From assembly GCA_041686025.1 (NCBI GenBank), contig JAWLEP010000043.1:1-20415 (forward strand): DNA of 20,415 nucleotides. The letters run 5' to 3'. The notes below the pieces were generated by a model. The model did no database searches and had not been told where the DNA came from. It was given only the letters and a program-made list of their open reading frames with translations. The translations under genes and the position numbers were made by a program. The DNA comes from Candidatus Fermentibacteraceae bacterium. GTDB lineage: Bacteria > Fermentibacterota > Fermentibacteria > Fermentibacterales > JCC-6. Below, piece by piece: positions 7,643 to 20,415 of this stretch. Within the stretch, counting starts at the first letter, position 1; each line of letters starts with the position of its first letter.

Positions 7643-10639
7643 GTGAAGCTCACTGACGTTGCAGTATCCCGACCGGTAGCCGTAACGGTACTCGCAGTGG
7701 TGGCGGCGCTGCTGGGCGCCATTGCCGTATTTCGCATGCCCGTGGACCTCCTGCCCTCCCTGGAGTACCCCCGGCTTACGGTGGAGACCACCTATCCGTC
7801 GTCCAGCCCCTACGAGGTGGAGAGGCTGGTCACCGACCCCCTGGAGGAGTCGCTGGCCGGCATCCGCAACCTCCGCAGCTACACCTCCCGGTCCTACGGC
7901 GACCGCAGCCGCATAGTCCTGGAGTTCGACTGGGGAACCAGGATGGACTTCGCCCGGCTGGAGATCCGCGAGAAGCTGGACGTGGCCAGCTGGTCGCTTC
8001 CCGAGGAGGCCGGCCGGCCCACCCTGGTGGACTACGACCCCTCCAGGCGGCCCTTCATGGAGGTTCTGCTCGCCCGCGAGGGCGACTGGACCGAGACCAC
8101 GGACTTCGCCCGTCGGGTGATCGCCACCAGGATCGAGCAGGCCGACGGCGTGGCCTCCTGCGAGATCGACGGAGAGGCAGAGCCCGCCGTCTACCTGCGG
8201 CTTCGCGACGGAGCGCTGGAGGAGCTGGGCATAAGCCCCACTACGGTGGCCCAGGCGCTGCAGGGGGCCAACGCCACCATGCCCGGCGGCCTGGTGCGCG
8301 AGGGACGCAAGGAGTTCTTCCTCTCCCTGGAGGGGGAGTTCACCTCCCTGGACGACGTGGCCAACACGGTCATCGGCTTCCGCGGCTCCACCCCCATGCT
8401 GCTGGGCGATGTGGCCGAGATCTCCCTCACCGAGAAGCCTCCCACCGAGTGGGCCAGCTACAACGGCAACCGTTGCATCATTCTGCGGATACGCAAGATG
8501 TCCGAGGCCAATACCGTGGAGGTGGCCGCGGATGTGGAGGAGGTCCTGGCGTCGATGCGGCGCGAGCACCCGGACGTGGAGCTGGAGGTCATCCAGAACG
8601 ACGCCCAGTTCATCCGGGAGTCCATCGGCGGCGTGGTGGAGGCCCTCCTTCTTGGCGGCCTTCTGGCCTTCGGCGTGCTCTTCTTCTTCCTGAGGGACTG
8701 GAAGAGCCCGCTGATACTGGGGCTCTCTCTGCCCCTGAGCATTGCCCTGGCCCTGTTCTTCCTGTTCATAACCGGGGTCACCGTGAACATCATGTCCCTG
8801 GGCGGGCTGGCCCTGGGAATCGGCCTTCTGGTGGACAACGCCGTGGTGGTGCTGGAGGCCATCTACCGCCGCCGCGAGCTGGGTGACAGCGCGGAGCAGG
8901 CCGCCCGCTCCGGAACATCGGAGGTGGGCCAGGCCATCGTGGCCAGCACTCTCACTACCATCGTGGTCTTCTTCCCCGTGGTGTACCTGCAGGGCATCTC
9001 CAGCCAGCTCTTCCGCGACCAGGCCCTGGCGGTGGGATCGGCGCTGCTGGCCAGCCTTCTGGTGGCGGTGACGGTGATCCCGTCCATCTCGGCACGTCTG
9101 AAGCGGGCGGCCGGGGGCGGGGACGTCACCGGCGGCGTCAAGGACCGCTACGGCAGGATGATGGGCGGAGTGCTGAGAAGGCGGTGGAGGATCATGGGGG
9201 TGTCGCTGGTCCTTCTGGTCCTGGCCCTGGTGGGGGCCACCAGGCTGCCCATGCAGCTGCTTCCCAGCACTCCGGTGGACCAGCTGGAGATTACGTTCTC
9301 CGCCCCGGAGGGCACCTCCATGCAGCAGCTGGTGGAGCTTTCCGGCCGGGCCGGAAGCCTGGCCGAGGCCTCCGGCGCCCTGTGGCACAGCGCCAGGATA
9401 GGCGTCCGGGCCGAAGAGGGGGTGGACGCCCTTCTCACCGCGGCATACGAGAGCCCGCACGCCGCGGAGTCGGCGGCCCCCGCCATCGCCGGGAGCTGGA
9501 GCCGGGGCTACGACTTCCCGCTGTCGGTGGACAAGCGGGAGACCCTTCTGGGAGAGATACTGGGCGGCGGCAGCGGCTTCACCATCTACATGGAGGGCGA
9601 GCTGGTGGAGACGGACCTGGCGGCGGCCAGGGCCCTCTCGGGGGCGGTGGACAGCCTGCCCGGCGTGGACGGCACCGACATCGAGTACCTTCCCGGGAGG
9701 CCCGAGCTGGTGGTGGAGCCGGACGAGGAGCTGCTCAGCCTGGTGGGCCTGTCGGTGTCCGAGCTGGCCGACTACCTGGAGAGCCTCTCCCGGGGAATTC
9801 CGGCCACCAGCTACTACCGTCAGGACGAGAAGGTGGACGTGATGCTGCTGGCCGGCCAGGGGGAGGGAATCGCCCTGGACCGGCTGCTGGACAGGTCGGT
9901 GCCGGTGGGACAGTCACTGGTGCCCCTGCGCCGGCTGATGAGCGTGACCCGCAGGAGGACGCCGGGGTTCGTGGAGCACTACCAGGGCAACCGCGCGGTC
10001 TCCATGCGGGTGCTCTCCGGGGGCAGCAACATGTCCGGCCTGCTGCGGCAGGTGGAGTTCGCCGCGGACTCCCTGCTGGCGGGGCAGCCGGTGAAGCTTC
10101 GGGCCGGCCCCGAGATCGAGGAGATGGAGCGGACGGTGTCCGACCTGATACTGGCCGGCCTGCTGGCGGTGGGCCTGGTATACGTGCTGCTGGCGGTGCA
10201 GTTCGAGAGCTTCCGGGAGCCCTTCGTGATAATGTTCACCGTTCCCCTGGGCATCATCGGCGTGGTGGCGGCCCTGGCTCTGTTCGGCCAGAGCTGGAAC
10301 GCCCTGTCGGGGATCGGCCTGGTGATACTATCGGGCATCGTGGTCAACGACGGAATCCTGCTGGTGGAGCGGATAGGGCAGCTCCGCAGGAAGGACATGG
10401 GCATCAGGGAGGCCATCGTACAGGCGGGACGTGACCGGTTCCGGCCGGTGATAATGACCACCAGCACCACGGTGCTGGGCCTGCTCCCCATGGCCCTGGG
10501 CTTCGGAACCGGGGCCAGCCTGCGGCAGCCCCTGGCCATCGCCGTCATAGGCGGCATCATCGTGGCCACCGTGCTCACACTGGTGGTGGTGCCGGTGATG
10601 TACCGCATACTCAGCCGCAGCGGGCGGGGCTCCGACTGA
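7643..10639 (+). CDS. RND efflux transporter permease, AcrB/AcrD/AcrF family (998 aa)
   Basis: GTG start with SD. Motifs RPV, PVDLLP, EVERLVTDPLEE, NIMSLGGLALGIGLLVDNAVVVLE, ASTLTTIVVFFP, QFESFREPF, RDRFRPVIMTT and PLAIAVIGG. Typical 12-TM RND layout and length. Confidence 0.95.
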   Translation: MKLTDVAVSRPVAVTVLAVVAALLGAIAVFRMPVDLLPSLEYPRLTVETTYPSSSPYEVERLVTDPLEESLAGIRNLRSYTSRSYGDRSRIVLEFDWGTRMDFARLEIREKLDVASWSLPEEAGRPTLVDYDPSRRPFMEVLLAREGDWTETTDFARRVIATRIEQADGVASCEIDGEAEPAVYLRLRDGALEELGISPTTVAQALQGANATMPGGLVREGRKEFFLSLEGEFTSLDDVANTVIGFRGSTPMLLGDVAEISLTEKPPTEWASYNGNRCIILRIRKMSEANTVEVAADVEEVLASMRREHPDVELEVIQNDAQFIRESIGGVVEALLLGGLLAFGVLFFFLRDWKSPLILGLSLPLSIALALFFLFITGVTVNIMSLGGLALGIGLLVDNAVVVLEAIYRRRELGDSAEQAARSGTSEVGQAIVASTLTTIVVFFPVVYLQGISSQLFRDQALAVGSALLASLLVAVTVIPSISARLKRAAGGGDVTGGVKDRYGRMMGGVLRRRWRIMGVSLVLLVLALVGATRLPMQLLPSTPVDQLEITFSAPEGTSMQQLVELSGRAGSLAEASGALWHSARIGVRAEEGVDALLTAAYESPHAAESAAPAIAGSWSRGYDFPLSVDKRETLLGEILGGGSGFTIYMEGELVETDLAAARALSGAVDSLPGVDGTDIEYLPGRPELVVEPDEELLSLVGLSVSELADYLESLSRGIPATSYYRQDEKVDVMLLAGQGEGIALDRLLDRSVPVGQSLVPLRRLMSVTRRRTPGFVEHYQGNRAVSMRVLSGGSNMSGLLRQVEFAADSLLAGQPVKLRAGPEIEEMERTVSDLILAGLLAVGLVYVLLAVQFESFREPFVIMFTVPLGIIGVVAALALFGQSWNALSGIGLVILSGIVVNDGILLVERIGQLRRKDMGIREAIVQAGRDRFRPVIMTTSTTVLGLLPMALGFGTGASLRQPLAIAVIGGIIVATVLTLVVVPVMYRILSRSGRGSD

Positions 10640-13600
10640 TGATCGAGACCGTGCTCAAAAGGCCCCGGGGCACCGTGGTGGCCTACCTGGCCCTGATAGC
10701 CCTGGCGCTGGTTTCCATCAACCGCATTCCCATCGAGGGAACCCCGGATACCACGCTGCCCTCCCTGAACGTCTCCACCCAGTGGCCGGGGGCGGACCCG
10801 GAGGCGGTCTGCGAGCAGCTCACCAGGCCCATAGAGGAGGCGGCCAAGCTGGTGGAGGGGGTGGAGGAGATATCCTCCAGCTCCCGTTCGGGGCAGTCCG
10901 TGGTGACGGTCTCCTTCGCCAAGGGCACGGACATGGACGTGGCCGCCATGGAGCTCACCGAACGGATATCCTTCCTGCAGGAGGACCTTCCTCCCACCGT
11001 CATGCCCAGCACCATCACCCAGTCCGTTCCCCGGGAGATGGAGAGCGAGGGGTTCCTGGTCTACGCTCTGGCCGGGGCGGAGCCCAGCGTACTCAAGCAG
11101 CTGGCCGACGACGTGGTCATACCCAGGCTGGAGAGGATCGACGGCGTGAGCTCGGTCCTGGTGGAGGGTCTGGGAGAGGGCGAGGTGGTGGTGGACATAG
11201 ACCCCGATGCCATGCGGGCCCAGGGAATCACCCTGGCCCAGGTGGCATCTGCCATTCGCGGCGGAATAGTGGACAGGAACGTGGGCGTGGTAACAGACAC
11301 CACGGGCCTGGAGACGGTGCTCCGCATCTCCACCGTGCCTTACAGCTCCACCCAGCTGGGGGACCTGATACTGACCCAGAGGGAGGGGCGGTTCGTCCGG
11401 CTGCGGGACGTCACCTCCTCCATCAGGCACCGCTACAGCCAGCAGCGCTCCTTCATCTACCGCTACAACGGCCTGGAGCAGGTGACCCTGGAGGTGGACC
11501 GCAGCGCCGGCAGCAACGCCGTCCGGGTGGCCGGCCGGGTGAAGGACGTGGTGGAGGGCCTCTCCGCCGACCTTCCCGAGGGGATACAGCTGGAGCTGGT
11601 TGAGGACGGCACCGAGGGCATACGCGAGGACCTGCGGGGACTTTCCTGGCGGGCCCTGCTGGCCCTGGCCGGCATTACCCTGGTGCTGATACTCCTCAAT
11701 CCCAGTCCCCTGGCCACGCCGCTGATACTCAGCTCCATCGTCATCTCCGCGGCCCTGTCCGTAACCGCCGTTTACCTGGTTGGCTACACCATCAACGTCC
11801 TCACCCTCAGCGCCCTGGCCATCGCCTTCGGCCTGCTGGTGGACGGGGCGGTGGTGGTGATGGAGGCCATCGGCTACAACCGGAGGATAGGCAGGCCGCC
11901 GCTGGAGGCGGCCCGGGTGGGGGCCAAAGAGGTGGCCATGCCCATACTGGGCGGCATTCTCACCACCCTGGTGGTCTTCGTCCCCATACTGGCCAGCGAG
12001 GGTCTTCTCAGGCTCTACTACCGCCCCTTCTCCTTCACCGTGGCGGCCACCCTGCTCTCCTCCTACCTGGTCTGCCTTACCCTGGTGCCCTCCCTGGCCG
12101 GACACTGGAAGTCCAGGGGGTGGTTCCGCCAGAGGGCCTGGGACCGCACGCTGGCCCGCTGGGTCTCCGTCCTCCACCACAAGCCCCTGATTGCCGTGAT
12201 CCTGTCGGTGCTGCTGGTGGGCGGCGCGGTGTACATTCTGGTGGACAAGGTGGAGACCGGCCGCAGCTGGGGCTGGGACTTCACCCGGGAGTCGGTGACG
12301 GTGTTCACCCAGTTCCCCCCGGGCACGCCCCAGGACGTGGTGGACGACGTGATGAAGCAGTTCGAGGAGATACTGGCCGGCAGGGAGGGCGTGAAGTCCA
12401 CCCGCACGTCGGTCTGGGGCGAGAACGGCCATCTCACCGCCATTTTCACCGAGGAGGCCCTGGAGAGCGGTCTGGCCCTGCAGATAGAGGCGGAGGCCAT
12501 GGCCCTGGCCACCACGGTGGGGGGGATCAAGTCCATATGGGTGGGGGGCATAAGCCCCGAAGGCTACTGGAGGAGCACCGAGAGCGCAGGGATGCTGCAG
12601 CAGATAGAGCTGCGGGGCTACGACTACGAAGGGCTGAAGCGCATAGCCATCAACCTCCGGGAGACCATGCAGCGGCATCCCCGGGTGGGGGAGGTCAACA
12701 TCGACTGGAACCGCCGGGTCCTGGACCGTGAGCAGCTCACGGTCACCTTCGACCGCGAGGAGCTGGCGGAGCTGGGCCTGAATCCCTACCAGGTACTGAT
12801 GGCCCTCCGCTACAGCCTTCCCGGCGGTTACGGAGGAGAGATTCAGCTGGGTGAGGAGACCCAGGACCTGACCTTCAGCATCGCCGGACAGGACAACCCC
12901 GAGCTGGAGGAGGTGCTGGCCAGCCGCATAGGGACCTACGACGGCACCATCCGCCTCCGCGACGTTGTGGACATCGACACCACCTCGGTGCAGGGCTCCG
13001 TGGAGCGCGACGACGGAGAGTACATACGAACCGTGGCCTACTCGTTCATGGGCGCGGAGCGGATGGCGGCCCGGTTCCGGAGGAGCATGCTGGACAACCT
13101 CAGCCTGCCCCCGGGATTCCGGGTATACGAGGATACCACCTGGGTGCCCCGCTGGCTCCGCGAGGAGGACGAGATCGACATGAACCTGCTGGTGATCGGC
13201 GCCATTATTGCCGTCTTCGCGGTCACCGCCATCGTATTCGAGTCCTTCAAGGCTCCGCTGTACATTCTGGCGGTGATACCCATGGCCATGGTGGGAGTGG
13301 TGGCCGGCTACTGGGCCTTCGACCGCCTCTTCACCAATCACGCCTACGTGGGAAGCGTCTTCCTGGTGGGCATCGCGGTGAACAACTCCATACTACTGGT
13401 TGACAGCTTCGAGAAGAAGAGAAAGGCCGGCACACATCTGAAGGAGGCCGTGGACAAGGTGGTTGCGGAGAGGCTGCGACCCGTCCTCCAGACCACCGCC
13501 ACCACCGTAGTCGGCCTGCTGCCCCTGGTACTCTGGCCCATGTCCGGCACCGACGACCTCTGGGGGACTCTGGCGTTCACGGTGGTCTGCGGCATGGTGG

Positions 13601-13674
13601 TTTCCACGCCTCTGGTCCTGGTTACCCTGCCGGCGCTGATACAGCTTACAACCCGCAGGAGGGAAGTACAGTGA
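10639..13674 (+). CDS. Second RND efflux transporter permease, AcrB/AcrD/AcrF family (1011 aa)
   Basis: TGATG overlap with the upstream permease. Motifs TRPIEE, INVLTLSALAIAFGLLVDGAVVVME, LTTLVVFVP, FESFKAP, GIAVNNSILLVD and ERLRPVLQTT. Confidence 0.95.
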   Translation: MIETVLKRPRGTVVAYLALIALALVSINRIPIEGTPDTTLPSLNVSTQWPGADPEAVCEQLTRPIEEAAKLVEGVEEISSSSRSGQSVVTVSFAKGTDMDVAAMELTERISFLQEDLPPTVMPSTITQSVPREMESEGFLVYALAGAEPSVLKQLADDVVIPRLERIDGVSSVLVEGLGEGEVVVDIDPDAMRAQGITLAQVASAIRGGIVDRNVGVVTDTTGLETVLRISTVPYSSTQLGDLILTQREGRFVRLRDVTSSIRHRYSQQRSFIYRYNGLEQVTLEVDRSAGSNAVRVAGRVKDVVEGLSADLPEGIQLELVEDGTEGIREDLRGLSWRALLALAGITLVLILLNPSPLATPLILSSIVISAALSVTAVYLVGYTINVLTLSALAIAFGLLVDGAVVVMEAIGYNRRIGRPPLEAARVGAKEVAMPILGGILTTLVVFVPILASEGLLRLYYRPFSFTVAATLLSSYLVCLTLVPSLAGHWKSRGWFRQRAWDRTLARWVSVLHHKPLIAVILSVLLVGGAVYILVDKVETGRSWGWDFTRESVTVFTQFPPGTPQDVVDDVMKQFEEILAGREGVKSTRTSVWGENGHLTAIFTEEALESGLALQIEAEAMALATTVGGIKSIWVGGISPEGYWRSTESAGMLQQIELRGYDYEGLKRIAINLRETMQRHPRVGEVNIDWNRRVLDREQLTVTFDREELAELGLNPYQVLMALRYSLPGGYGGEIQLGEETQDLTFSIAGQDNPELEEVLASRIGTYDGTIRLRDVVDIDTTSVQGSVERDDGEYIRTVAYSFMGAERMAARFRRSMLDNLSLPPGFRVYEDTTWVPRWLREEDEIDMNLLVIGAIIAVFAVTAIVFESFKAPLYILAVIPMAMVGVVAGYWAFDRLFTNHAYVGSVFLVGIAVNNSILLVDSFEKKRKAGTHLKEAVDKVVAERLRPVLQTTATTVVGLLPLVLWPMSGTDDLWGTLAFTVVCGMVVSTPLVLVTLPALIQLTTRRREVQ

Positions 13675-16677: not shown

Positions 16678-18168
16678 TCAGCTCCGCCAGGCGCGGCGGC
16701 TGAACAGCAGCAGCACCGGCAGTATCTCCAGCCTTCCGGCCACCATTCCGAATATGTAGACAACCTTGATCAGCGGGTCCAGTCCGCCCATCTCCGCCAC
16801 CGGTATGTAGCAGGGACCGATGTTCCCCAGGGCGCTGAACATCCCCGAGGCCGACTGCAGGGGGCCGTAGTCGGAGAGGACGGCTGTCACGCCGGCTCCC
16901 GCCAGCAGCAGGACCATCCAACCGAAGAGGAGGGAGGAGACCCTGTGGGCCTCCGCGGGATCCAGAAGGCCTCCGTCCACAACCGTCCTCTTCACCGCCC
17001 TGCGGGGCAGGAAGATCCGCTCCAGCTCCTGTTTCAGCTGCCTGTAGAGTATGCCCACCCGCAGCACCTTGATTCCCCCTCCGGTGGACCCCACGCAGCC
17101 CCCTGTCACCATCATGGCCAGGAACAGCAGACGGGCCAGGCCTCCGAAATATGGGGAGCCGATGTCCCGGGTGCCGAAACCGGTGGTAGTGGTGATGGAC
17201 ACCACCTGGAAGAGGGTGGTCCGGACCTCCGCCTCCAGACCGCCCATGGCTCCCGACGCCCACCTCTCCACCAGTATCAGGGCGGTGAATCCCACCAGCA
17301 GCGACCACCAGAGGCGCATCTCCAGCCCCCTGAACAGGGAGAGGGGCTTTCCGGACAGGACGCTGTAGTGCACCACGAAGCTGGTTCCCCCCAGGAACAT
17401 GCCCAGTATCAGGACGTACTCGAGCGCCCGGAAGTGGGCCAGCCCCGTATTCGCGTAGTGGGCTATGCTGGCGTCGTAGGGGGAGAAACCGCCGGTGGAG
17501 AGGGCGGTGAAGGCGTGACATACGCCGTCGAAAAGCGACACCCCGCACAGCCTCAGCAGCAGGGCTATGCCCAGGGTGAAGGCCGTGTATATCAGCCAGA
17601 GGATCCTGACCGTATGCGCCATCCCCGGCACCGGCCGGCCGGAGTCTATCTTGTGGGTCTCCGCTCCGTACAGGTTGTAGGCCCCCGGGACCTCCGCGGT
17701 GACGCCCAGAAAGAAGGTCAGTATGCCCAGGCCTCCCACCCACTGGGTCAGCGCTCGCCAGAAGATGATGCTGCGGGGCAGCCCGTCCAGGCCTGTGATC
17801 ATGGTGATGCCGGTGGTGGTGAAACCGCTCACCGTCTCGAAGTAGCCGTCCAGAAAGTCAGTGGTGCCGGATATGACGAAGGGCATCGCGCCCACGGCGG
17901 ACAGCAGGAACCAGGCCAGGCCGCAGAGGAGCATGGCCTGGGCGACGGTGGGCGTCCGCGGCCGGAAGACCAGCCGCAGCAGCGCACCCAGGGCCACTGA
18001 CCCCCCTGCGGGGAAGGCGAATGCGTTCACGGTGCTCCAGCTCTGGTGATGCTCCGAGTAGAGCGCGGCCACCAGTATGGGAAGAAGCATTATCAGGCCC
18101 AGCACCATGAGAAGCGACCCGCTGAAGCCCAGTACCGTCCTGATCGACCTGCCTGTGCTCAGCCCCAC
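16678..18168 (-). CDS. trkH: Trk system potassium uptake membrane protein (496 aa)
   Basis: Four pore-loop signatures FETVSGFTTTG, LSTGGFS, TTTTGF and ALGNIGP, plus QWVGGLG, GGCVGSTGGGIK and GRLE. The GTG start has no clear SD, so the start is approximate. Confidence 0.95.
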   Translation of the reverse strand: MGLSTGRSIRTVLGFSGSLLMVLGLIMLLPILVAALYSEHHQSWSTVNAFAFPAGGSVALGALLRLVFRPRTPTVAQAMLLCGLAWFLLSAVGAMPFVISGTTDFLDGYFETVSGFTTTGITMITGLDGLPRSIIFWRALTQWVGGLGILTFFLGVTAEVPGAYNLYGAETHKIDSGRPVPGMAHTVRILWLIYTAFTLGIALLLRLCGVSLFDGVCHAFTALSTGGFSPYDASIAHYANTGLAHFRALEYVLILGMFLGGTSFVVHYSVLSGKPLSLFRGLEMRLWWSLLVGFTALILVERWASGAMGGLEAEVRTTLFQVVSITTTTGFGTRDIGSPYFGGLARLLFLAMMVTGGCVGSTGGGIKVLRVGILYRQLKQELERIFLPRRAVKRTVVDGGLLDPAEAHRVSSLLFGWMVLLLAGAGVTAVLSDYGPLQSASGMFSALGNIGPCYIPVAEMGGLDPLIKVVYIFGMVAGRLEILPVLLLFSRRAWRS

Positions 18169-18183
18169 AAGCTCATCGCGGCG

Positions 18184-18759
18184 TCAGAAACCATACTGCA
18201 GAGTAACTCCGGCAACGGGATCCATGAGCCCCTTGCCGAGCTCCACCTCCGCGCCGAACTTTGGCCCGAATCCTTCGCCGAGGTGGTAGATGCAACCCAG
18301 GGTGGCGGTGACTCCGGAGCCGAAAACCTCCTCAAGGTCCAGCCATCCGTCCTCGCCTTCGTCTTCCCAGTCCGGACGGTAGCCCAAAGCACCGTACGGC
18401 TCCCAGCCTCCCAGCTGCCTCGACGCCAGAAGAGCGGTCCTGGAGGGGAATCCGGCTACCACGTCCTGCTCCACGGCGATGTCGGCGAAGCCGTTCTTCG
18501 GCGCTTGCAGGCGGAACCCCCCGCACAGCCCCCAGTCATCCCCATCCTGGTTGTAGGCCAGCACGTTTACACCGAGCCCGGGCCAGGAGGAGGCGGGCAG
18601 GCCCGTCTCGACGTTCAGTCCCGGCACGACATCGCCGTCCACGTACACGGCCTGCGCCCCGGCGCTGAAGGGAACCACACGTGCGGTGTGAAAAGTCCCG
18701 AAGCAGGAACAGGCTATCAGCAGAACCGCCAATGCCGATGTTGCGAGTAGCGCTCTCAT
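18184..18759 (-). CDS. Putative outer-membrane beta-barrel protein with lipoprotein-like N-terminus (191 aa)
   Basis: Start moved to ATG 18759 (SD GGAGGT). Signal peptide ending LLIACSC. Gly-rich amphipathic strands. C-terminal beta-signal VAGVTLQYGF. Confidence 0.65.
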   Translation of the reverse strand: MRALLATSALAVLLIACSCFGTFHTARVVPFSAGAQAVYVDGDVVPGLNVETGLPASSWPGLGVNVLAYNQDGDDWGLCGGFRLQAPKNGFADIAVEQDVVAGFPSRTALLASRQLGGWEPYGALGYRPDWEDEGEDGWLDLEEVFGSGVTATLGCIYHLGEGFGPKFGAEVELGKGLMDPVAGVTLQYGF

Positions 18760-18846
18760 GCGGACCTCCAGGTTTGTGCAATCCATTTCCGCTTTTGCGG
18801 AGCTTCCATTCCCCAAGATCAGCGATTTGCACTCGGGGAGCAAGTG

Positions 18847-18874
18847 TTGACTGTCACACCGCGGCAGGTATAGT
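18847..18874 (+). promoter_or_regulatory. Sigma70-type promoter upstream of the Trp leader and trpB2
   Basis: TTGACT (18847-18852), 16-nt spacer, TATAGT (18869-18874). Both boxes match consensus at 5/6 in otherwise GC-rich DNA. Confidence 0.7.
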
Positions 18875-18884
18875 TACAGTCACC

Positions 18885-18980
18885 ATGAGGGAAGCGAAGA
18901 GACTTCACGCCCGTGTGAACGACAGCTGGTCCTGGAGCCTCCGGACCTGGTGGGCGGCCTCCGCCGCCCATCGTCTTTAG
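18885..18980 (+). CDS. Trp-rich leader peptide, TrpL-like (31 aa, MREAKRLHARVNDSWSWSLRTWWAASAAHRL)
   Basis: ATG 10 nt after the -10 box. Four TGG codons (18927, 18933, 18948, 18951) including a tandem WW. Stop is 58 nt before the tryptophan synthase beta gene. Confidence 0.75.
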   Translation: MREAKRLHARVNDSWSWSLRTWWAASAAHRL

Positions 18981-19038
18981 TCTCTCTCTACCGACCCAAC
19001 TTACATTTTAACGCAGGAACCAAACGGAGGAGGCTCCG
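18928..19038 (+). promoter_or_regulatory. Putative attenuator RNA structures of the trpB2 leader
   Basis: Hairpin A 18928-18947 (GGTCC...GGACC). Hairpin B TGGGCGGC (18951-18958) / GCCGCCCA (18963-18970) followed by a pyrimidine-rich tail. GGAGCCTCC (18934-18942) is the exact reverse complement of GGAGGCTCC (19029-19037), which spans the trpB2 SD. Confidence 0.6.
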
Positions 19039-20388
19039 ATGCGACGCTTTGCACCCAGAGATTTTGAACTGCTTCCCGAGAGCTACTACAACCTCAAGCC
19101 CCGGCTGAAGAGGCTGCCGCGGCCCCCGCTTCACCCGGCAACCGGAGAACCACTTTCCCCCTCGGACCTGGAGCCCCTGTTCCCCCGGGGGTTCATCGCC
19201 CACGAGGGCAGCATGGAGCGGGAGGTGGAGATACCGGGGCCGGTGAGGAGCGCGTACTCCATCTACAGGCCCACCCCGCTTGTCAGGGCGCTGGGCCTGG
19301 AGCGGGCCCTGGACACGCCGGCGGAGATCTACTTCAAGTTCGAGGGCGTGGGCCCCATGGGGAGCCACAAGAGCAACACGGCCATCGCCCAGGCCTTCCT
19401 GGCAGCCGAGGAGGGGGTGACCACCCTCACCACCGAGACCGGTGCCGGGCAGTGGGGCTCTGCCCTGTCCCATGCGGCCCGGCCATTCGGGCTGGACGTC
19501 AGGGTCTTCATGGTGCGCTGCAGCTTCAGGCAGAAGCCGGGCCGAAAGACGCTGATGGAGCTGTGCGGGGCCAGCGTGGTGGAGAGCCCCAGCCACCTGA
19601 CCGCCACCGGCAGGCGCTACTTCGAAGAGGACGCCGACCATCCGGGAAGCCTGGGAATAGCCATCTCGGAGGCGGTTGAGATGGCGGTGGAGGTGGACGA
19701 CGTCCGCTACTCCCTGGGCTCTGTGCTGGACGCGGTAATGCTTCACCAGTCGGTGATCGGGCAGGAGGCCCGCAGGCAGATGGAGCACTTCGGGGCTCCC
19801 CCGGACGTGGTGGTGGGCTGCGTGGGCGGCGGGTCCAACTTCGCCGGCCTGGCCTTTCCCTTCGTGGGGGAGATGCTGGAAGGCGGCGGCCGGACCAGGT
19901 TCGTGGCTGTGGAGCCGGAGCTCTGCCCCACCCTTACCCGGGGGCCGCTGGGGTACGACAGCGGGGACAGCGCCGGCCTCACCCCCCTGGTCTACATGCA
20001 CTCGCTGGGCAGGGACTTCGTCCCGCCCCCCATCCATGCCGGAGGACTGCGATACCACGGCATGGCGCCTCTGGTGAGCCAGCTGGTGGCCGACGGCATC
20101 GTGGAGCCCCTGGCCCTGGGCCAGGAGGAGGTATTCAGGGCGGGACGTCTGTTCCTGGAGTCCGAAGGGGTGCTTCCGGCCCCCGAGTCCTCCCACGCGG
20201 TGGCCGCGGCCATACGGGAGGCGGAGAGGGCACGGGAGGAGGAGGCCCGCCGCCGTATACTGCTGGGCCTCTCCGGACACGGCCTTCTGGACCTCGGCGC
20301 CTACGAGGCTCCGTCCGCCCCGGCGTTTACAGGGCGGCTGCGCCGGGGGTATAGTGCTCTCGAAGACAAGGAGCTCCCACACTCTTGA
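19039..20388 (+). CDS. trpB2: Tryptophan synthase beta chain-like PLP-dependent enzyme, TrpB2 type (449 aa)
   Basis: SD GGAGGAGG. TrpB2-type N-terminal extension (LP..YYNL, PPLHPATGEP). Motifs RPTPLVRA..LE, GSHKSNTA (PLP lysine), TETGAGQWGSAL, GCVGGGSNFAG, PIHAGGLRYHG, PAPESSHA and LSGHGLLD. Confidence 0.95.
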   Translation: MRRFAPRDFELLPESYYNLKPRLKRLPRPPLHPATGEPLSPSDLEPLFPRGFIAHEGSMEREVEIPGPVRSAYSIYRPTPLVRALGLERALDTPAEIYFKFEGVGPMGSHKSNTAIAQAFLAAEEGVTTLTTETGAGQWGSALSHAARPFGLDVRVFMVRCSFRQKPGRKTLMELCGASVVESPSHLTATGRRYFEEDADHPGSLGIAISEAVEMAVEVDDVRYSLGSVLDAVMLHQSVIGQEARRQMEHFGAPPDVVVGCVGGGSNFAGLAFPFVGEMLEGGGRTRFVAVEPELCPTLTRGPLGYDSGDSAGLTPLVYMHSLGRDFVPPPIHAGGLRYHGMAPLVSQLVADGIVEPLALGQEEVFRAGRLFLESEGVLPAPESSHAVAAAIREAERAREEEARRRILLGLSGHGLLDLGAYEAPSAPAFTGRLRRGYSALEDKELPHS

Positions 20389-20402: not shown

Positions 20403-20415
20403 ATGATCCGTACCG
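20403..20415 (+). CDS. Probable start of the next gene, truncated by the window edge (MIRT...)
   Basis: SD AAGGAG at 20391-20396 followed by ATG at 20403, 14 nt after the trpB2 stop. Only four codons are visible. Confidence 0.5.

Follow-up and report, generated by a model that had tools for sequence, protein, structure and literature searches.

How is a stand-alone trpB2 gene controlled when a short reading frame rich in tryptophan codons lies between it and its promoter? This question is raised by a 20,415-nt stretch of DNA from a Candidatus Fermentibacteraceae bacterium (contig JAWLEP010000043.1, positions 1 to 20,415, forward strand), hereafter referred to as the window. A preliminary description, made from the letters alone, had reported a 31-codon ORF with four Trp codons behind a near-consensus promoter, with a nearly leaderless ATG that has no SD and a trpB2 gene downstream. 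Our analysis recovered each of these elements, and added a promoter-like site near the end of trpB2:

18847-18874, plus strand: sigma70-type promoter TTGACT-16-TATAGT, predicted start site near 18881.
18885-18980, plus strand: leader ORF of 31 aa, MREAKRLHARVNDSWSWSLRTWWAASAAHRL and stop, with the Trp residues W15, W17, W22 and W23.
18927, 18933, 18948 and 18951, plus strand: the leader Trp codons, from the translation of ORF 18885-18980.
19039-20388, plus strand: stand-alone TrpB2 of 449 aa with a single Trp (W139).
20326-20355, plus strand: promoter-like site TTTACA-18-TATAGT, which would serve the next, unrelated gene (20403 onward).

The promoter ahead of the leader was the sole such site in 18300-19500, where 0.1 would be expected by chance. 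Because the leader ATG lies 10 nt past the -10 box, the 5' untranslated part would, at the usual spacing, comprise 3-4 nt, and the interval contains no GGAG-type SD. Among 344 short ORFs of the whole genome that start 33-39 nt 3' of a TTG[AC][CA] box, 25 had at least two Trp per nine residues, and the leader of the window alone had more than two within nine residues. Three metatranscriptome runs from a single study contain contigs that agree with 18899-19088, 18941-19158 and 19004-19239 at 0-1 differences. Such contigs do not reveal the strand, the ends or the level of a transcript and could originate from DNA, and no conclusion is drawn from them. The promoter region is common to the leader transcript and a divergent gene (18184-18759, minus strand) without NCBIfam family.

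Assignment of the downstream gene as trpB2 is based on scores of 571 bits against TIGR01415 and 622.6 bits against NF009057 (PRK12391), both above the curated cut-offs, and on a score far below cut-off against TIGR00263 (trpB1); the best solved relatives of the protein are TrpB chains. Its C-terminus is longer than in complete relatives (449 aa versus 418-446 aa), and the promoter-like site at 20326-20355 falls within the last 21 codons (20326-20388). A 464-codon frame opposite trpB2 (18988-20382, minus strand) is most likely a high-GC shadow ORF. The suggestion that the gene starting at 20403 might continue a trp operon did not hold. The window end overlaps contig C2 by 99 nt, and the gene, which runs on there and has a promoter-like site of its own, encodes a 738-aa protein with only a sub-threshold Ig-like match and no trp family; a trp operon 3' of trpB2 was rejected. 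Reading the translations by eye likewise gave no trpA-like ORF behind trpB2 in the 42 relatives analysed below. Other genes of the window include a TrkH-like potassium transporter (16678-18168, minus strand; below cut-off), which adjoins TrkA-like frames, and two tandem genes at 7643-13674 (plus strand) that we take from their translations to be RND-type efflux genes.

In order to see what other tryptophan genes the organism has, its genome (G000, 94.75% complete) was searched by family for trpA, trpC, trpD, tnaA and TrpR, and by tblastn with the operon proteins of a same-genus relative for trpE, trpF and trpB1. None of these was found, trpB1 and trpA included, so that TrpB2 is the only trp enzyme detected in G000. 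Searches of G000, G008, G024 and G038 for trpC, trpD, tnaA and TrpR were equally negative, and rho was found in all four genomes. A search for serA gave no match above cut-off.

The leader recurs before this gene in relatives. Within the order, 46 relatives were compared: 13 encode a TrpB2 orthologue over its full length, each of them preceded by the leader, and in one more a fragment of the gene lies at the edge of a contig. Collection scans yielded at least 160 further TrpB2 loci, 146 of them with enough upstream DNA to screen. The analysed set, drawn from the matches listed, comprises 43 leaders (the window and 42 relatives) in 20 clusters after three duplicates were dropped; L008, which is cut upstream, was left out of the leader counts. 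A Trp-codon ORF precedes trpB2 in 43/43 of these clade members. A tree was computed for 161 proteins (43 with leader, 115 other TrpB2 and three TrpB1), the TrpB2 loci being those with upstream DNA; there, the enzymes behind a leader group together in a single clade (support 1.0) from which every other protein is absent. Record titles within it include Ca. Fermentibacteria, Aminicenantes, Saccharicenans and uncultured Eubacteriales; one record titled Ca. Fermentibacteria encodes a TrpB2 64% identical to that of the window and has the same leader.

A covariance model of the hairpin described below found a single site in G000. Across 61 genomes and at E 0.0015 or better, it found only 14 trpB2 leaders (13 of them training sequences) and no second leader in G000 or the 60 other genomes. 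In 80 further genomes outside the training set, two new sites appeared, both before trpB2. Four weak matches (three at E 0.015-0.04 and one more) were rejected as leaders, and in three genomes with trpB1-trpA operons the model placed no leader before them, its sites lying at trpB2 only. A simple IUPAC pattern of the hairpin was uninformative in G000 (17 matches versus 20 for the reversed control), and Rfam gave only chance matches, none at gathering score, for the trpB2 leader. Judged from this comparison of sequences, the Trp leader on trpB2 is real and conserved, and very probably a Trp sensor.

Two further elements recur between the first Trp codons and the gene:

18949-18972, plus strand: hairpin P1, 10-bp and GC, with the W22-W23 codons as its 5' arm.
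18981-19025, plus strand: C-rich, G-poor spacer, candidate Rho loading region.

In 41/43 leaders, the in-frame ATG is preceded at 33-39 nt by a TTGAC box, and by this promoter geometry they look leaderless or nearly so, while the distance from this ATG to the Trp codons ranges from 13 to 31 codons. The nine codons ending at the last Trp contain three Trp in 21 leaders, two in 17, one in four and four in one. In all 43 leaders, the last UGG opens a GGGCG..CGCCC hairpin, P1, which in the window has a folding energy of -23.1 kcal/mol (z -4.65). Pairing occupies 86% of the alignment cells at this register versus 44-60% when the arms are slid, and four sequences have a 7-nt loop that is out of register. 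Compensation is limited to one clear G-C to C-G change in three sequences; there is little covariation to be had from a 5' arm that hardly changes (TGGGCG throughout), UGGUGGGCG serving as P1 arm and as W-W-A codons at once. The last Trp codon is followed by the leader stop after 2-9 codons, and in 40/43 leaders by the trpB2 ATG after 79-110 nt. Optimal rut sites are described as C>G regions of 60-90 nt (PMC12360218), with which this distance agrees. In the window, the 51 nt 5' of the SD contain 17 C and 5 G, and the first bases of the spacer can also pair with the SD. A C/G skew above 0.3 was seen in the spacers of 36/43 leaders versus 13/118 other trpB2 upstream regions, a contrast between kin that are not independent samples. 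At the level of composition, a rut-like C>G region 3' of the leader and a rho gene in the genome are thus both present.

The preliminary description had proposed attenuation that senses Trp-tRNA. A leader of Trp codons that is conserved ahead of trpB2 and starts almost without a 5' untranslated part is supported, and it would do the sensing. The output had been left open; it is not the classical terminator/antiterminator switch, a separate terminator being found in 0/43 leaders. We consider it likely that the leader ORF is a ribosome-read Trp gauge that switches on the stand-alone TrpB2 without an intrinsic terminator, i.e. ribosome-mediated attenuation on an unusual target. That Trp starvation induces trpB2 through the leader can be proposed with considerable confidence. 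As for the output, the balance tips slightly towards a stalled ribosome that keeps the RBS open and also denies Rho its loading site. When charged tRNA-Trp is plentiful, the ribosome would finish the leader and leave, and P1 would refold. The RBS would then be closed, in G000 by the W17 segment, and about 150 nt of naked pyrimidine-rich leader and spacer would load Rho, which would end transcription near the trpB2 start. When Trp is scarce, the ribosome would sit on the Trp codons and hide the anti-RBS and pyrimidine segment that lies upstream, so that the emerging RBS would be preceded by no more than about 60-80 nt of naked RNA. With too little naked RNA for Rho and an open RBS, trpB2 would be translated and escape Rho, and TrpB2 would make Trp from indole, a predicted indole salvage. 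A ribosome stalled 20-25 nt upstream leaves the spacer uncovered, so the exclusion of Rho rests on a length argument.

Among other explanations, the first is that a stall frees the trpB2 RBS and nothing more, Rho having no regulatory role and the C-rich stretches being only anti-SD segments or unstructured spacer. The elements concerned, which the output favoured above also uses, are:

18933-18942, plus strand: anti-RBS segment UGGAGCCUCC (W17-S-L codons), complementary to 19029-19038.
19025-19038, plus strand: trpB2 RBS GGAGGAGG, inside a local 5-bp hairpin CGGAG-GAGG-CUCCG.

This purely translational attenuation would be served by the 10-bp helix between UGGAGCCUCC and GGAGGCUCCG, just 5' of the trpB2 ATG (duplex -21.5 kcal/mol; own versus foreign RBS z -2.6), by 7-10 bp between the first Trp codon region and the trpB2 start codon in L007, L009 and L011-L014, and by pairing of the segment 5' of the Trp codons with the SD in L061, L066, L133, L134 and L136; its logic is that described for mycobacterial polycysteine leaders (bioRxiv 10.1101/834739). 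The probability of the window pairing in free RNA is only 0.01-0.46, varying with the 3' end folded, and to open the RBS takes 10.1-10.4 kcal/mol when a ribosome occupies any of the Trp codons, 10.5 in free RNA and 12.4-12.7 when it stands at the stop; free and Trp-stalled RNA thus differ little (10.5 versus about 10.2). Own-RBS pairing beat foreign pairing for the upstream segment in 10/43 leaders and for the post-hairpin segment in 6/43, compared with 2/43 and 1/43 for two control segments, and in constrained folding a Trp stall opened the RBS by more than 1 kcal/mol over free RNA in only 21/43. A single universal anti-SD switch was not supported, since neither folding nor own-versus-foreign pairing was uniform and RBS switching held in only some half of the relatives. 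Of the 20 clusters, about one in two lacks pairing with its own RBS that exceeds foreign pairing, yet keeps P1 and the C-rich spacer, and we therefore regard a solely translational output as unlikely.

The second explanation reverses the signal: a ribosome halted at the leader stop, by TnaC/SpeFL-like arrest with Trp or indole or through translational coupling, would cover a post-stop anti-SD or rut and turn trpB2 on. Indeed, strong post-stop:SD helices of lineage-specific sequence occur in L002-L006, L010 and L053, the C-rich region comes after the stop, and four leaders end in Arg-Pro-stop. In L002-L006 and L010, a Trp stall leaves most of this 10-12 bp helix intact, and only a ribosome at the stop opens it; the helix may, as modelled, act as a second gate that needs the ribosome to finish the leader. 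Constrained folding of the stop state opened the RBS in 20/43 leaders, and in 12/43 more than the Trp stall did. Against this, a ribosome at the stop makes the RBS of the window still less accessible, the stop lies within the hairpin loop in 7/43 leaders, and the C-terminal residues are variable, W-A being the one peptide motif fixed in frame. We consider an arrest peptide unlikely because the stop position varies from two to nine codons after the last Trp, and the Trp-depleted enzyme described below speaks against induction by Trp. Taken together, induction from the stop codon appears quite improbable.

A third possibility is that the leader acts on mRNA stability or through a P1-binding protein, the stalled ribosome shielding the 5' end or removing the binding site. 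The P1 5' arm does vary less than pairing needs, and compensatory changes are few, but Trp-Ala codons plus pairing explain this invariance as well, and no candidate regulatory protein gene adjoins trpB2. We give this reading little credence.

Still less can be said for classical intrinsic attenuation with P1 as the terminator, which we consider highly improbable. A terminator scan does accept P1 of the window, which has UCUUUAGU behind it and five U within the next 8 nt, but the other 42 leaders have at most four U there, and a separate hairpin with U tract between P1 and trpB2 was found in 0/43. A ribosome would melt P1 whether stalled or not, and Rfam gave no match above threshold. The lack of a terminator after P1 and the variable stop position together show that this is not a classical attenuator, and an intrinsic terminator/antiterminator switch was rejected for all 43 leaders. 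Constrained folds likewise gave no conserved partner for the freed P1 3' arm and hence no conserved antiterminator. In L002-L004, an extra GC hairpin between leader stop and SD has a 5' arm that is by eye complementary to the P1 3' arm. It lies within the post-stop:SD helix and resembles a 1:2 / 2:3 / 3:4 layout that lacks a U tract, and such a 2:3/3:4-like option was seen only there.

That the ORF is untranslated, its Trp codons a by-product of a conserved G-rich hairpin, can be virtually dismissed: the hairpin arm does double as W-W-A, and 4/43 leaders have a single Trp, but additional in-frame UGG codons lie outside the hairpin (W15 and W17 in the window), at least three Trp occur in 22/43 leaders, and the in-frame ATG is kept at the predicted start site in 41/43 despite the changing ATG-Trp distance. 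A frameshift switch at a hungry Trp codon was also rejected, as the +1 and -1 frames each reach the last 20 nt ahead of the trpB2 start without a stop in no more than 16/43 leaders and the trpB2 frame is not fixed.

The composition of the enzyme agrees with a gauge that answers to Trp shortage. Enzymes made while an amino acid is short tend to avoid that amino acid when it is their own product. TrpB2 of the leader clade contains a mean of 1.1 Trp versus 4.3 in the other 118 tree proteins, and 38/43 keep solely the invariant Trp. Four positions that hold Trp in 53-88% of other TrpB2 do so in 0-7% of the leader clade, with three of them mostly F/Y, and no such drop was seen in Phe, His, Cys or Met counts. 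This is the depletion expected of an enzyme made during Trp starvation. Because the 43 sequences form one clade, the composition and depletion contrasts are not made between independent samples, and Trp depletion is to be counted as one event. In line with the earlier proposal that TrpB2 serves Trp supply here, the sole trp enzyme found in G000 is thus also a Trp-depleted protein. No trpA was found in the 12 same-order leader carriers searched, and the two trpA-containing genomes among 39 of the order both have trpB1. Three of five other leader carriers checked have trpA beside trpB1; the leader clade is therefore not restricted to auxotrophs.

Other layouts for the control of Trp genes were seen in the surroundings of this clade. 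G001, a genome of the same genus, has a complete trp operon, trpE-D-C-F-B1-A-G, preceded by a classical attenuator that had not been annotated (L232, 3816-4030): a 53-codon leader containing WYWW and ending in GWYWWYHISAAGGEGPPD, an alternative pairing, and a terminator hairpin followed by seven U. It has no Rfam match. Ribosome-read Trp sensing thus plausibly works in this lineage. In genus g2, a TrpR-family gene directly precedes trpB1 (G010, L234, 3529-5044; PF01371 confirmed), and by eye TrpR-like frames also precede trpB1 in L024, L025, L026 and L030. No trpA was found in the three such genomes searched, and the arrangement corresponds to a repressor-controlled indole-salvage layout like that of Chlamydia. 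Different Trp-rich short ORFs lie 80-200 nt 5' of trpB2 in L084, L087, L090, L091, L104, L141, L154, L169, L175 and L189 (e.g. ...FYWWWPNPLG, ...DWWWSYSPR and ...KYWWQPFV), with record titles naming Thermotogae, Deltaproteobacteria, Bipolaricaulota and others; their enzymes are mostly not Trp-depleted (2-8 Trp). Going by these reading frames, trpB2 leaders may have arisen several times. In G054, from another phylum, trpB1 is preceded by a frame ending in TIWWAAILAKLA and stop but without its own ATG (L235, 3835-3910, minus strand); an ATG in a neighbouring frame runs over an A-AAA-AAC run, a possible frameshift or homopolymer error, and trpA was not found in this genome.

Among known systems, the proposed gauge would work most like the mycobacterial leaderless polycysteine attenuators. 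As Ms5788A is described (bioRxiv 10.1101/834739), the two have in common a short ORF that starts leaderless (for trpB2, going by promoter geometry), a run of cognate codons, the lack of an intrinsic terminator, a codon tract that can pair with the downstream RBS (for trpB2, in the window and some relatives), and Rho polarity as a possible consequence. Unlike Ms5788A, the trpB2 leader has Trp instead of Cys codons, a fixed hairpin over the sensing codons and a 40-115 nt C-rich spacer, and codon:RBS pairing occurs in only part of the family. With classical trpL leaders (enterobacterial, and those of Corynebacterium and Streptomyces treated in PMC1262725) it shares Trp codons in a 5' hairpin arm near the stop and a Trp-synthesis target, but it has no U-tract terminator or conserved antiterminator, appears to start leaderless and precedes a single stand-alone gene. 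The actinobacterial LEU element of the same paper differs in amino acid (Leu), in its proposed pseudoknot, and in gene and phylum. The Rho attenuators tnaC, speFL, mgtL and cruR, as reviewed in PMC12360218, likewise combine a leader ORF, a C>G region of rut size and the presence of Rho. They respond to free ligands or Mg via arrest peptides or refolding, whereas the trpB2 leader would sense the lack of Trp-tRNA, and its peptide end is not conserved.

Stand-alone TrpB2 is proposed to convert indole to Trp (PMC1854888, PMC11917138, PMC2700814), and use of O-phosphoserine by TrpB2 is cited in PMC11917138. Like these enzymes and the Chlamydia trpRBA salvage operon (PMC7755916), the TrpB-type enzyme studied here is separate from the other pathway genes or occurs where these are missing. 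The available text of the three TrpB2 papers describes no RNA leader on the gene, and Chlamydia is described as regulating via TrpR and YtgR (PMC7755916). A terminator-less Trp leader on trpB2 was not found described in the literature available to us, although comparative attenuation surveys and the leader-gene tables of PMC4833913 could list trpB2 leaders. Within that literature, trpB2 occurs together with a leader peptide or attenuator only in PMC1262725, where a C. diphtheriae operon written trpB2A has a classical attenuator ahead; this name may not denote a type-2 TrpB.

A more far-reaching reading, which we put forward as a tentative possibility, is a length-gated Rho attenuator that reads aminoacyl-tRNA shortage. 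Here, the stalled ribosome would neither refold an antiterminator nor cover a rut, but shrink the naked leader below Rho loading size until the next RBS is captured. Together with a TrpB2 purged of Trp, it would form a self-contained cassette for indole salvage, common to two phyla, by which seeming Trp auxotrophs would become prototrophs that depend on indole.

What stand-alone TrpB2 is for has been disputed, with indole salvage, serine deaminase and an unknown role under discussion (PMC1854888). Three genomic signs, a Trp-codon leader, a Trp-stripped enzyme and no other trp gene found, point to Trp supply under starvation. Within one family, three solutions coexist: the full operon under a classical attenuator, a trpR-trpB1 pair lacking trpA, and trpB2 behind its leader, again lacking trpA. 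With the 160-nt leader, amino-acid attenuation may gain a form that is linked to Rho and needs no terminator, and for these uncultured anaerobes the arrangement predicts indole cross-feeding and, with it, a medium supplement.
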